Source: Candidatus Omnitrophota bacterium (lineage in GTDB: Bacteria > Omnitrophota > Omnitrophia > Omnitrophales > Aquincolibacteriaceae). Taken from it: a DNA stretch of 64,000 nt. This document shows, in pieces, positions 55,918 through 61,161 of the stretch. Below the pieces are notes generated by a model, which did not search any database, was not told the origin of the DNA, and was given only the letters and a program-made list of their open reading frames with translations. Position numbers and translations under genes: made by a program. Every line of letters begins with the position of its first letter. Positions within the stretch are counted from its first letter, which is position 1. The stretch spans positions 252-64,251 of the forward strand of contig CAISGE010000023.1 of NCBI GenBank assembly GCA_903884815.1, read 5' to 3'.

Positions 55918-57387
55918 TTAATCCTTCTTTTTGGGCGCCCGCCCGATAAGATAAAAATCACTTGCGGGCAGCTTGTCATAAACACCGCTGATGATCGCTT
56001 CGCAATCGTCCACCCCATCAGTCACCGAGACGAATTCCCCTTTTTTGCCGGTGAACGCTTCACCCACACAGAAAGGTTGCGTCATAAAGTTAAGAAGTTT
56101 TTCAGCGCGTTTGTAATCGACCTGGTCCTCTTTCGGCAATTCTTCAACACCGACAACCTGGACGATGCGTTTGAGAGAGCTGTGCTTTGCGAAAAGTGCC
56201 AGTAGCTTTTGGCTGATATTATAAGGTCTTTGTCCCACAATACGCGGATCCAGATTCGAGCAGCTGCTACGCAAGGGGTCAATGGCCGGATAATAACCGC
56301 GCTGGGCCAGATCTCGAGAAAGTGTTAGCGCTCCGTCAAGACAGCTGAAGATCGCGACCACCGAAGGATCGGTCATATCGTCAGCCGGAACGTAAACGGC
56401 CTGCAGGGACGTGATCGATCCATACCCCGGAATGGAGCGGATCCGCTCCTGGACAGTATTGACCTCGGACTGCAAGGTGGGTTGATAGCCTGATTCTCCA
56501 GGAACGCGGCCAAGCAGCGTGGAGATCTCCTGCCCGCCTTGAATAAAACGAAACACATTATCCATAAAGAGAATGACATCTTTATTCTGCTCCGCAAGAT
56601 CTTCAGCTAGCGTGATCCCCGTATTCACGCACTCATACCGGGCGCCCGGAGGTTCGTTCATCTGACCGAACACCAGCTTTACCTTGCGAAGGAGGTTGTT
56701 GTCCTTCAATTCGTGAAAAAGATCGTTCCCTTCACGAATGCGCTCACCGATCCCCGTAAAGACACAAACACCGTCATGTTTTTTAACAATATTATTGATG
56801 AGCTCGAGGATGACGACGCTCTTGCCGCAACCGGCCCCCCCGAGAATCCCCATTTTACTTCCCTTGCAAAGAGGGAAAAGAATGTCCAGATATTTGATCC
56901 CCGTTTCCAGGAATTGGGGCTTGGTGGTGAATTTGCTTTTCAGATCATACAGCTCAGGACGTGGCGGGCGCCGGATCACTTTAAACTCGGTGCCTTTAAA
57001 ACCCTCCATATTGTCCACCGGGTCCCCGAACACGTTGATGATACGACCATAAAGCTCATCCCCTGTCCTGATCGACACGGGCTTTCGGGTATTCAGAACC
57101 CTGGAATTAAGCTGAAGATTCAGGGTCTCAGAGAGAGCGATACACCGAACTTCGTTTTTGCTTAAATGCTCCGCGACCTCCAGAACGACTTTCCTTTTAT
57201 TGAAGGATTGCCCGATCAGAACGTCATAAAGAGATGGGAGATCTTTGACCTGCGCGAAGTTGACGTCCACGACCGGTCCCCGGACAGCGGACACTTTGCC
57301 GAAGATCCCTTCTGCTGGTAATTCGAACCCTGTGCTTTTGGGAGACTCCGCGGTCTCTTTTGTTTCTATCTTTTGTATTTTCATCAA
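55918..57387 (-). CDS. F-type ATPase beta-subunit homolog (divergent)
   Basis: P-loop GGAGCGKS (canonical GGAGVGKT), catalytic [27 protein letters not shown] (canonical YPAVDPLDSTSRxLDP), DELSEED region diverged (VEELPKEDQ). Stop lies 9 nt upstream of the gspE ATG, with an AAGAAGGA RBS inside the beta 3' end. Confidence 0.85.
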
Positions 57388-58286
57388 CGCTTCCCTTTGC
57401 TAACAGATGATGACGTAAACACCTCGCGCATGGCCTTATTCAACTCGTCGCGGCCGGCTTTGCGGAAGCTCGTCACAAGCCCTTTTTTTTCGGACCCTAG
57501 CGATTCAAGGGCCGATTCAAGCTGCTGCGCTTGAGTGGCGGACTCCACAAGAAGAATGTCCGCCAACATCTCGAAAAGACGCGAATGGATCCAGATGTCG
57601 GCAAGCGCTTTCATCATTTTATCGGGGCTGGATTCCATAATCAGCTTGATCTTATCTTCCGGCCCCTTGGTGTCTTCCACAGACTCCCCATCTTCTGACA
57701 TCTCGCCGCCCCCCGTCCTTACAAGCTCCGATGCGGGAAGCAGAGTTAAAAGACGAGGTTTGATGATGCTAAAGGTCTTGGCCCACAAATGAATGATCAT
57801 GACCCTCCCCGCCTTACCCGTCATGACACGATCCACCAGATAGGACCGAAGCTCGAGCGCCAGAAGATAGCGATCCGGATATTCGGCCGGAACAAATACA
57901 CGGTCGAATTCCTTTACGCCCAGCATCTTGATACGTTCCGCGCAGCGCGCTCCCAAGCATGAAACCGTCGCGCCCGGATTTTTAGTGTACTGCTGAAAAG
58001 CAAGACTCGCGATGCGACTATTGGCTTGGGACATGAACGCCTGGTCTGACGCGACGGTTAAGATCGTAACTTCCGGGCGATCATTCTTAAGAAGTGGACA
58101 ATTAGAATCCACATGCTGCATCACAGCAAATAACTCTAAAAAAGATTCGAAAAATTTCTGAAAGTTCGCCTTTCTCTGAGCGAACGCAAAGAACTTGTTG
58201 GTCGCCACGTCCTTAATGACCGAGAGGATTTCCAGGAGCGCATCCACGTCATCCATATCTCCCTTGATCCTTGTGACTTTCCCCAT
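57384..58286 (-). CDS. F-type ATPase gamma-subunit homolog (divergent)
   Basis: 300 aa with N- and C-terminal helical segments resembling the gamma coiled coil and a central Rossmann-like region. 4-nt overlap with beta. Confidence 0.55.
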
Positions 58287-58307
58287 AGAGCCTCTTCTTT
58301 TTAAACT

Positions 58308-59376: not shown

Positions 59377-59655
59377 CTAAATATCCCAGAGCTGCTTGTA
59401 GTTTTTATAACTCGGATCAACCTCAGCGATAATGCGACATTGATTATTCCTAAAACTCAAAACCCCGACTTTGATCGGAATACTTTCATGATCCGCAATC
59501 TTCAGCTCCCCTTCCGGGATAGAAGACACAAGGGGATGATGAAAGGCCAAGAGCTCGAACTCCCCATCATCGCCTGTCAAATAGACCGATTCAACAAGAT
59601 CATCAAAGGCAAGTCCCTTCAGGCTCAACACTTGCAGATTGAATCTTGGCTTCAT
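59377..59655 (-). CDS. F-type ATPase epsilon-subunit homolog (beta-sandwich only)
   Basis: 92 aa with an N-terminal beta-sandwich pattern (…GEFELLAFHHPLVSSIPEGELKI…). Lacks the C-terminal helical hairpin. Confidence 0.55.
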   Translation of the reverse strand: MKPRFNLQVLSLKGLAFDDLVESVYLTGDDGEFELLAFHHPLVSSIPEGELKIADHESIPIKVGVLSFRNNQCRIIAEVDPSYKNYKQLWDI

Positions 59656-59664
59656 AATCCCCCT

Positions 59665-61161
59665 TTAGGCCACTTCAACAGCCGATTCCGCCTCTGCAGT
59701 CAAGAATTTCTTCTTGATGACTGCCACGTAATCCTCCAAAACGCGTTTCATCCTGCTCTTGATCTCATCCGTGAGAGCTTTCTTATCGCGAATAAGGGCA
59801 AAGAGCGGTGTATCTGCCTTCCGTGCGAAAGCCTCAAAGCCCGCGATGAACTCCTGCACGTGGGGAACTTCCAAGTCTTTAAACAAATTTTCAGCCTTGG
59901 CATAAAAGAGCATGATCTGTATCTCGATCGTTACGGGTTTATTCGCCGGCTGAGTGAGCAGCGCCTGAAGGATTTTGCCCGAGCGGAGACTTTCACGCGT
60001 CTCCTCCGACGCGCCCGAGGCCTGCAACTTACTCGCACGCAAAAGCTCCTTAAATTGAATAAATTCCATACGTAATGTTTTAGAAATCTCCTTCGTCGCT
60101 TTCCATTGCACTTTGCTTCCGACGCGTGAAACCGAAAGACCGATATCGACGGCAGGACGGAAGCCTTCATTAAAGAGAGAACCGTTCAAAAAAAGCTGCC
60201 CGTCGGTCATGGAAACAAGATTGGTGGGGACGAAAGCTGTGAGATCCCCCTCTTGAAGTTCCACCACGGGAATAAAGGTCATGGAACCGCTACCGTGCTT
60301 TGCATCAAGCTGTGCGGCCCGCTCGATCATGCGCGAGTGCAGATAAAAAATATCCCCGGGGTAAGAATCGCGTCCCGGCGGCACGCCCATCAGAAGGGAG
60401 AGTTCGCGATAGGCCCAGGCATGTTTCGTGAAATCATCGAAGAAAACAAAGACATCTTTACCGCGGTCCCTGAAATATTCCCCGATCGAGCATGCCGCAT
60501 AAGGCGCCAGATATTGCTGACCCGGCGAGCTTGAGGCCGGCGCGCAGAGGATAGTGGTATACTCGAAACATCCGTGCTCTTTAAAAAGAGAAACGACTTT
60601 TCCCATCGAGGAGGCCGTCTTTCCAATCGCACAATAAATACAGAAAACATCTTTTCCTTTTTGGTTGAGAATAATATCCGTACCGACAGTGGTTTTTCCG
60701 GTCATTTTATCACCCAGGATCAAAGACCGCTGCCCCTTGCCGAGAGGGAGCATCGAATCGATCAGCTTCACGCCGGTTTCAAAGGAGCGACTTAATGTAG
60801 CGCGATCCATAATTGCCGGGGCATCATTAAAATAAGGGATGTATTCTTCCAGTTTGAGGGTCCCCAACCCATCCATCGACTCCCCGAGAGGGTTCATGAT
60901 CCTGCCCACGGAGGCTGGCCCTACCGGCATGCTGAAGGGCTCCAGTGTCGCGATCGCCGGATTACCCGGCGACAAGGGCTCATTCTCTTTGATGATCAAT
61001 ATTTGGGCCGCATTCAAGTCACACCCCATGAGCACACCCTGAGTCCCATACCCAAACTGAACCAATTGCCCTAGGAAACAGTTCTGGAGCCCCGTAACCT
61101 GGACGATGCAACCGCTCACAGATTTGATGATTCCAGTTTCCTTAAACCGTAATTCTTCCAT
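59665..61161 (-). CDS. F-type ATPase alpha-subunit homolog (divergent)
   Basis: P-loop GDKMTGKT (canonical GDRQTGKT), N-terminal beta-barrel, C-terminal helical bundle; 498 aa. Confidence 0.85.
   Translation of the reverse strand: MEELRFKETGIIKSVSGCIVQVTGLQNCFLGQLVQFGYGTQGVLMGCDLNAAQILIIKENEPLSPGNPAIATLEPFSMPVGPASVGRIMNPLGESMDGLGTLKLEEYIPYFNDAPAIMDRATLSRSFETGVKLIDSMLPLGKGQRSLILGDKMTGKTTVGTDIILNQKGKDVFCIYCAIGKTASSMGKVVSLFKEHGCFEYTTILCAPASSSPGQQYLAPYAACSIGEYFRDRGKDVFVFFDDFTKHAWAYRELSLLMGVPPGRDSYPGDIFYLHSRMIERAAQLDAKHGSGSMTFIPVVELQEGDLTAFVPTNLVSMTDGQLFLNGSLFNEGFRPAVDIGLSVSRVGSKVQWKATKEISKTLRMEFIQFKELLRASKLQASGASEETRESLRSGKILQALLTQPANKPVTIEIQIMLFYAKAENLFKDLEVPHVQEFIAGFEAFARKADTPLFALIRDKKALTDEIKSRMKRVLEDYVAVIKKKFLTAEAESAVEVA

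Follow-up and report, generated by a model that had tools for sequence, protein, structure and literature searches.

In a 64,000-nt stretch of DNA from a Candidatus Omnitrophota bacterium (assembly GCA_903884815.1, contig CAISGE010000023.1, positions 252 to 64,251; hereafter the window), six genes for subunits of an F-type ATPase precede the genes of a machine resembling type II secretion systems (T2SS) and type IV pili (T4P). Pfam and NCBIfam searches assigned each of the six open reading frames (ORFs) at 55918-61161 on the minus strand to one F-type subunit family, namely alpha, epsilon, c, a b-delta fusion, gamma and beta, as an earlier inspection of the letters and translations (the sequence-only reading) had claimed. 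The set belongs to a gene order that recurs in about 50 related loci, and no a-subunit was found in the window or in any of these loci. We propose, with a probability of about one half, that its products form an accessory rotary F-type ATPase without an a-subunit, which would serve the pseudopilus machine as an ATP-driven mechanical motor.

Conservation and distribution of the locus

Related loci were collected by a scan for beta with one genome per species (41 linked loci) and by a scan of metagenome contigs for the assembly ATPase PilB (eight further loci), and the window proteins were mapped onto all ORFs of every locus. Their genes typically follow the order [giant repeat protein]-[456-aa protein]-alpha-epsilon-c-(c')-b/delta-gamma-beta-PilB-PilC-GspG-minor pilins-(GspK-like)-PilMN-PilO-like-TPR. 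The stretch of this order from the 456-aa protein to PilMN was seen in 41 species-representative and 10 metagenome loci. Because PilB lies 3' of beta in 39/39 loci that extend past beta, and beta lies directly upstream of PilB in 6/6 informative loci of the PilB-based scan, the data support the view that the F-type genes belong to the T2SS/T4P-like operon as a conserved and dedicated component and are no chance neighbours. The atp-gspE synteny that the sequence-only reading had pointed out in the window is thus a recurrent feature of related genomes.

Homologues of the window's beta at 60-92% identity all come from Candidatus Omnitrophota metagenome-assembled genomes (MAGs), where they are annotated as F0F1 ATP synthase beta, and the related loci include named Omnitrophota species. 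Four loci (L035, L039, L040 and L042) have a variant order, 456-aa protein-epsilon-c-b/delta-alpha-gamma-beta. Twelve others (L025-L034, L037 and L038; beta identity 51-55%) are labelled Kiritimatiellia, Victivallales, Lentisphaerota or Verrucomicrobia, the taxon labels being the depositors' own. These 12 carry two tandem alpha paralogues (e.g., L026 4532-5995 and 5943-7475), the second of which is without the Arg finger (SLSIVG in place of SVSRVG) and clusters with alpha from the Omnitrophota loci of variant order. Since the NCBI taxonomy places Omnitrophota in the Planctomycetes-Verrucomicrobia-Chlamydiae (PVC) group, the ATPase-pilus system spans PVC lineages. Neighbor-joining trees recovered linked alpha and linked beta each as monophyletic relative to the canonical sequences sampled, a small and biased set. 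The gamma family is small and restricted: among 1.84 billion representative proteins, 140 matched at E<=1e-3 and 58 at E<=1e-10.

Relation to published Omnitrophota loci

This locus type was already published in 2023. Seymour et al. (2023, Nat Microbiol, PMC10066038) describe a "non-respiratory" or "symbiotic" F-type ATPase cluster beside a type-4a pilus (T4aP) cluster in many Omnitrophota, including V. archaeovorus LiM; the two lie within 10 kb of each other in 57 of 66 contigs, in every Omnitrophota class, and the proposed role is attachment to, or motility on, host cells. These Omnitrophota ATPase/T4aP loci refute the statement of the sequence-only reading that the arrangement matches no described system. 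The window locus reads as an orthologous instance of the same "symbiotic" F-type ATPase/T4aP locus, because its beta stop lies 9 nt from the PilB/GspE start, a distance noted earlier and confirmed by the ORF coordinates, and because its closest homologues are all from Omnitrophota MAGs. A literature search for c-ring ATPases linked to type IV pili returned Seymour et al. (2023) only. The giant-gene paper of West-Roberts (2023) reports a conserved secretion locus of the Tad/GspD type and leaves F-type ATPases unmentioned.

The loci of Seymour et al. (2023) are defined by alpha phylogeny and 10-kb co-location, and the searchable parts of its text and supplements hold nothing on c, c', the b-delta fusion, a missing a-subunit, the 456-aa protein, the 13-residue-repeat protein or occurrence outside Omnitrophota. 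The present analysis contributes a complete list of the subunits and of the conserved partners, shows that a is consistently missing and that the system, in part with a duplicated alpha, is distributed across the PVC group, and provides evidence against both a housekeeping role and membership of the Mycoplasma type 2/3 family.

Catalytic residues and selection

Alpha and beta carry the catalytic features of F1Fo enzymes (P-loops, catalytic Glu and Arg finger) and pass the NCBIfam cut-offs of TIGR00962 and TIGR01039. Alpha scored 512.8 bits with TIGR00962 (cut-off 484), 238 bits with PF00006 and 76 bits with PF00306. The P-loop, catalytic Glu and Walker B motif of beta are conserved in 38/38 members of its clade. 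The clade's P-loop contains a clade-specific Cys, GGAGCGK[TS], and DELSEED has become EELSKxD (EELPKED in the window). All 25 alpha-I sequences keep the Arg finger, and the motifs that the sequence-only reading quoted for alpha and beta, as well as the c carboxylate that it noted, are present in the translations. Judged from these residues, ATPase activity of alpha/beta is likely.

All genes compared are under strong purifying selection. The ratio of nonsynonymous to synonymous substitution rates (dN/dS) ranged from 0.016 to 0.08 across all ten, with 0.017 for c and 0.045 for the 456-aa protein; the comparison was with a relative whose PilB is 85% identical, at which distance dS is saturated and the ratios are rough.

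The membrane sector

A hidden Markov model (HMM) was built from 19 canonical a-subunits and scored 87-412 bits on canonical loci from four phyla. It had no match among all six-frame ORFs of the window, which agrees with the sequence-only reading, and nothing better than E=0.19 in the roughly 50 related loci with 10 kb on either side. The ATPase part of every locus is without an ORF of at least four transmembrane (TM) helices. Likewise, no small multi-TM ORF was found in the operon, atpI itself not having been searched for with a model. The unmatched ORFs of all loci were considered as hidden a-subunits, and only two-TM c-like ORFs (c') were found among them. The membrane parts of the system are c (two TM helices), c' in some loci, the single TM helix of b-delta and the C-terminal TM helix of the 456-aa protein.

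The c protein is a hairpin with a carboxylate in TM2 and a polar loop, as in F1Fo enzymes. The TM2 Glu, which lies within LLFAEAAS in the window, is kept in 33/34 linked c sequences (Ser in L009), and the cytoplasmic loop GRNPSAA is also kept. The GxGxGxG packing motif of TM1 is lost, and c misses all NCBIfam equivalog cut-offs, with gamma and epsilon likewise far below theirs. Fourteen Omnitrophota loci have, between the genes for c and b-delta, one for a further, divergent hairpin of the c type, c' (e.g., L007 6505-6792, L019 5641-5868 and L024 5807-6040); the window has none. It goes unrecognised by Pfam, some copies have C-terminal extensions, and 9 of 10 aligned c' sequences have Glu at the carboxylate position. 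For b-delta, Pfam gave 32.6 bits with OSCP and a weak match with ATP-synt_B.

The conserved c carboxylate keeps alive the alternative that the complex is still ion-coupled. Its c-ring would then work with an unrecognised a-like stator, either an a-subunit whose gene lies outside the locus or some other membrane protein, PilC/GspF for example, and would supply local ATP for PilB or a local ion gradient for the pilus platform. Conservation of the c Glu and of the R-N-P loop across two phylum-level groups fits such coupling, as does the retention of a full F1, c and stalk set from which a alone is missing, and a T2SS platform protein has been proposed as an ion channel (PMC10790770). However, none of the loci has an a-like ORF, a genome of the Seymour data set (genome 221, below) has no K02108, PilC is not known to resemble subunit a and any link of it to a c-ring would be conjectural, and the glycine packing of c TM1 is gone. 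We regard ion coupling as unlikely.

A probable accessory role rather than that of the cell's ATP synthase

The sequence-only reading offered, as a less exciting alternative, a housekeeping ATP synthase of odd gene order whose a-subunit is encoded elsewhere; the pilus neighbourhood would then be without functional meaning. Such an enzyme would fit the scores of alpha and beta, which pass the equivalog cut-offs for atpA and atpD, the public annotation as F0F1 ATP synthase, and the variant loci, whose order is a cyclic permutation of the canonical a-c-b-delta-alpha-gamma-beta-epsilon minus a. It accords poorly with the invariable adjacency of PilB, which holds over groups whose beta is only 46-55% identical to that of the window, with gamma, epsilon and c falling far under their equivalog cut-offs, and with an a-subunit missing from every locus. 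The alpha phylogeny of Seymour et al. (2023) also splits "respiratory" from "symbiotic" clades.

Evidence on other rotary ATPases of carrier genomes bears on the same point. The MAGs of Ca. Zapsychrus exili (L019) and Ca. Aceula lacicola (L024) both carry the ATPase cluster, and Williams (2021, PMC8542988) assigned both a V-type ATP synthase for chemiosmotic ATP synthesis. In the source data of Seymour et al. (2023, PMC10066038), genome 221 has the KEGG Orthology entries for alpha, beta, V-type and T2SS proteins and none of K02108, K02109, K02110, K02113 and K02115 (a, b, c, delta and gamma). A 2026 preprint on 176 complete Omnitrophota genomes (bioRxiv 10.64898/2026.06.07.730766) reports alpha and beta in 125, gamma in 30 at strict thresholds, and a V/A-type ATPase in most Gorgyraeia and commonly in complete Omnitrophota genomes. 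The window itself holds no other rotary ATPase. These observations, though indirect, disfavour the housekeeping alternative, which we consider highly improbable, and point to an accessory role, in which the cluster would not be the cell's chemiosmotic ATP synthase.

Comparison with known rotary and secretion ATPases

The locus resembles canonical F1Fo operons (atpIBEFHAGDC) in having homologues of alpha, beta, gamma, epsilon, c, b and delta, in its catalytic residues and c carboxylate and, in the variants, in the order c-b-delta-alpha-gamma-beta. It differs in that neither a nor a small multi-TM ORF of the atpI kind was found, in the fusion of b with delta, in a truncated epsilon, in a c that lacks the Gly motif of TM1, and in its setting within a pilus operon. 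N-ATPases (operon atpDCQRBEFAG) offer a second comparison, since they too have a long b of about 246 aa without a separate delta and occur as an additional, accessory F-type operon of a genome. Over its full length b-delta indeed matches N-ATPase subunit b best, at 49 bits with TIGR03321 against a cut-off of 225. Membership was rejected: alpha scored 457 bits with TIGR03324 (cut-off 750) and beta 454 bits with TIGR03305 (cut-off 752), and neither an a-subunit nor small multi-TM ORFs were found. N-ATPases have a, AtpQ, AtpR and a Na+-type c, unlike the locus described here, and are not known to be linked to pili.

FliI/SctN, with FliJ/SctO and FliH/SctL, provides a precedent for an F1-related ATPase within a secretion or filament-assembly machine. 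It is a homohexamer without an alpha/beta pair or a c-ring and serves a different secretion system, and its relation to the alpha and beta of the locus is distant (123-205 bits).

A functional parallel is the Mycoplasma type 2 (G1 gliding motor) and type 3 (F1-like X0) family. These F1-like ATPases are mechanical or non-synthase motors. Their clusters of seven genes encode a 12-TM protein and a small cytoplasmic protein, lack c and b/delta, and have the gene for a signal-peptide, C-terminal-TM protein before alpha (PMC12994834). Like type 2 (G1) and type 3 (MIB-MIP), the ATPase of the window would be F1-derived, used for something other than synthesis, without subunit a, and encoded next to surface machinery genes. 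It could even be a member of that family, as Seymour et al. (2023) classified it: the alpha phylogeny of that study groups the Omnitrophota "symbiotic" clade with Mycoplasma types 2 and 3, and both share a non-respiratory context and a signal-peptide, C-terminal-TM protein gene just 5' of alpha. The scores and the composition argue otherwise. With the Mycoplasma NCBIfams, alpha reached 385 bits against a cut-off of 600 and 267 against 520 (513 with canonical atpA), and beta 415 against 850 and 367 against 570 (514 with canonical atpD); beta also matched yeast F1 beta at 426 bits versus 329 bits for M. mobile G1 beta (chain 9io5). The locus includes c and b-delta, and neither a 12-TM X0 protein nor a small cytoplasmic subunit was found. 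As it falls short on both the NCBIfam cut-offs and gene composition, membership was rejected and is in our view very unlikely.

Upstream partner genes

Two genes precede the ATPase set (Table 1). The gene for the exported 456-aa protein adjoins alpha or epsilon in Omnitrophota and PVC-labelled loci. The protein is predicted to have a signal peptide, two modules each of a beta-sandwich and a 3-helix bundle, and, near its C-terminus, a TM helix that leaves a short tail in the cytoplasm. The 65 homologues found are all annotated as hypothetical and are typically 456 aa long; neither the protein nor its homologues matched a Pfam family. An AlphaFold2 model reached a predicted local distance difference test (pLDDT) score of 79, and no specific fold match was obtained for the protein. 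The TM helix was inspected for a charged residue that might replace the a-subunit Arg, and none is conserved.

The repeat protein consists of strict 13-residue repeats, G[VI]NWxD[IL]xxLSxx, followed by a helical C-terminal domain, and matched no Pfam family. Its gene lies 5' of the ATPase genes in most Omnitrophota loci, and related contigs encode 100-138 repeats at 13-aa spacing (ORFs L002 3-6266, L004 2-5224 and L011 3-4631). Contigs with identical alpha differ widely in the length of this protein, with extremes of 382 aa and at least 2409 aa, and contig ends often fall inside the gene. A word-based homologue search returned 15 proteins only, mostly partial, and an AlphaFold2 model was uninformative (pLDDT 48).

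Operon structure and neighbouring genes

The minus strand from 47.3 to 64 kb forms a single tightly packed gene block in the ORF listing of the window. The sequence-only reading described the spacing as tight, with a single wider gap of 95 nt between the c and epsilon genes. This holds for most junctions, which are 4-nt overlaps or gaps of at most 22 nt apart from 94 nt between epsilon and c; it fails between the repeat-protein and 456-aa genes, where the gap is 67-115 nt. It also proposed co-transcription of beta and gspE. A consensus scan found neither a terminator-like nor a promoter-like site at the beta-pilB junction; the counts of such sites over 46.5-64 kb are at or below the level of shuffled sequence, and the scan is weak evidence either way. 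An Rfam scan of the window found five tRNAs only, none inside the block.

Table 1 Genes of the 47.3-64 kb block, listed in the order of transcription.
Feature	Position	Strand	Remarks
Giant repeat protein, 3' part of gene	62669..64000	-	First operon gene; continues past window end
Exported 456-aa protein	61183..62553 (ORF to 62601)	-	Directly 5' of ATPase genes
Alpha, F1-like	59665..61161	-	498 aa; P-loop GDKMTGKT; Arg finger SVSRVG kept
Epsilon-like	59377..59655	-	92 aa; N-terminal beta-sandwich PF02823 only
c-like proteolipid	59061..59282	-	73 aa; 2 TM; PF00137 30.5 bits vs cut-off 24
b-delta fusion	58308..59045	-	245 aa; N-terminal TM helix, coiled coil, OSCP-like C-terminal part
Gamma-like	57384..58286	-	300 aa; very divergent; PF00231 57 bits
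Beta, F1-like catalytic	55918..57384/7	-	488 aa; TIGR01039 513.9 bits vs cut-off 463
PilB/GspE-type assembly ATPase	53596..55908	-	770 aa; MshEN N-domain; C-terminal PilZ
215-aa protein	52952..53599	-	GspF-N-domain-like N-terminus and PilZ-like C-terminus (comparison by eye)
PilC/GspF platform protein	51735..52955	-	
GspG-like major pseudopilin	51260-51718	-	G|F..xE5 prepilin motif
Minor pseudopilin	50834-51250	-	G|F..xE5 prepilin motif
Minor pseudopilin, GspJ-like	50251-50853	-	G|F..xE5 prepilin motif
PilM-PilN fusion	48725-50299	-	
204-aa bitopic protein, PilO/GspM position	48106-48720	-	
TPR lipoprotein-like protein	47319-48134	-	Last gene of conserved block

The genes downstream of beta comprise a T2SS/T4aP set of GspE/PilB, GspF/PilC, GspG-type and minor pseudopilins and PilM/N(/O)-type proteins, with PilMN in the position of GspL. 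The description of the block as a T2SS-like operon thus stands as regards its GspE-, GspF-, GspG- and GspJ-type genes; it needs qualifying in that there is no secretin and the first gene is incomplete at the window end. Neither a secretin (GspD/PilQ) nor PilT was found in the block or in the related loci. A GspK-like gene, which in other loci lies between the GspJ-like gene and PilMN, is displaced in the window.

The 215-aa protein resembles the N-terminal domain of the neighbouring PilC/GspF joined to a PilZ-like domain similar to the C-terminal PilZ of PilB. Its gene was found by phmmer only in close relatives and is missing from most related loci. Together, this PilZ-like domain and the PilZ and MshEN domains of PilB suggest several possible cyclic di-GMP inputs.

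The displaced GspK-like minor pseudopilin is encoded at 41924-43027 (minus strand), about 4 kb past the operon end and beside an S41 protease. Between it and the operon end lie genes for an 868-aa STT3/PglB-type oligosaccharyltransferase (43430-46036, minus strand) and a GT2 glycosyltransferase. In many related loci a gene of the Peptidase_MA_2 family (about 275 aa; L007 13526-14368) stands between PilC and GspG, and a MORN-repeat protein of about 445 aa (L025 13455-14780) ends the PVC-labelled loci; the window has neither.

A second, conventional T4P/T2SS-like cluster without ATPase genes occupies 198-8887 (minus strand) and encodes PilM, PilO, a 182-aa protein, a secretin (3243-5078), PilB and PilC; its PilB (565 aa) is 41% identical to the ATPase-linked PilB. 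Elsewhere in the window, an isolated prepilin-type (N_methyl) gene at 34674-35168 (minus strand) adjoins the gene for a 609-aa protein (35652-37481, minus strand) with a Reprolysin/M10-like metallopeptidase N-terminus and many TPR repeats. Two paralogues (about 596 aa each), which combine 6-7 TM helices with TPR repeats at the C-terminus, are encoded side by side at 11266-13056 and 13213-15006 (plus strand), and a 481-aa protein with nine TM helices and no Pfam match at 38770-40215 (plus strand).

Proposed mechanism

The data show the gene content, the synteny, the intact catalytic residues, the purifying selection and the lack of a-subunit genes in the loci, and a separate V-type ATP synthase is reported for two carrier MAGs. 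That the ATPase forms a complex with the pilus machine we infer, and likewise which way energy flows, what serves as the stator and what the load is, as follows. The ATPase would consist of alpha3beta3, gamma, a short epsilon, a c-ring and a b-delta stalk. It would be made together with a T2SS/T4P-like pseudopilus machine (PilB, PilC, GspG/J/K-like pilins and PilMN) and with two lineage-specific partners, the exported, membrane-anchored 456-aa protein and the giant repeat protein. Hydrolysis of ATP by beta would turn a gamma-epsilon-c-ring rotor against a stator formed by the TM helix of b-delta, to which the 456-aa protein would probably add its C-terminal TM helix. As the absence of an a-subunit would leave no ion path, the output would be mechanical, a torque or force delivered to the envelope or the pseudopilus apparatus and used in attachment, motility or predation; the enzyme would not make ATP or pump ions. 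The synteny suggests that the ATPase and the pilus machine may form one physical "hybrid nanomachine", as the sequence-only reading had imagined.

Several points weigh against the proposed motor. The main difficulty is the retained c carboxylate, which is to be expected as long as the binding of ions, or of a cationic partner in the stator, remains important and is not obviously needed by a purely mechanical, ion-free rotor. Neither b-delta nor the 456-aa protein has a conserved charge in its TM helix. With the glycine motif of TM1 gone, c may or may not assemble into a normal ring. The ATPase and the pilus machine are linked by their shared operon only, and an a-subunit gene may lie far from the locus, the search having covered the loci and 10 kb on either side.

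The conserved carboxylate also motivates a bolder form of the proposal, which is speculative and quite unlikely. The ATPase would represent a third type of mechanical motor derived from F-type enzymes, and the first in which a c-ring persists as membrane rotor although a is missing. The c carboxylate would be engaged by a cationic partner other than a, such as a stator helix or the positive N-terminus of E5-type pseudopilins. ATP-driven rotation of the c-ring might then directly spin, feed or retract the pseudopilus, in place of the missing PilT, or drive the 456-aa protein and a fibre of the repeat protein. Such a motor could be ancestral to PVC bacteria (Omnitrophota, Kiritimatiellota and Lentisphaerota) or exchanged among them.

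Implications

The locus type itself has been in print since 2023; its mechanism would come as a surprise to specialists in rotary ATPases. If the proposed mechanical motor is real, rotary F-type ATPases would have been recruited at least twice as motors of surface machinery, in mycoplasmas and in the PVC group, and the type IV filament superfamily would have gained a second motor. The retained c-ring would then be a natural experiment on what a c-ring does without an ion channel. For the ultra-small, abundant and uncultured Omnitrophota, the locus is a candidate core of an apparatus for attachment or predation.

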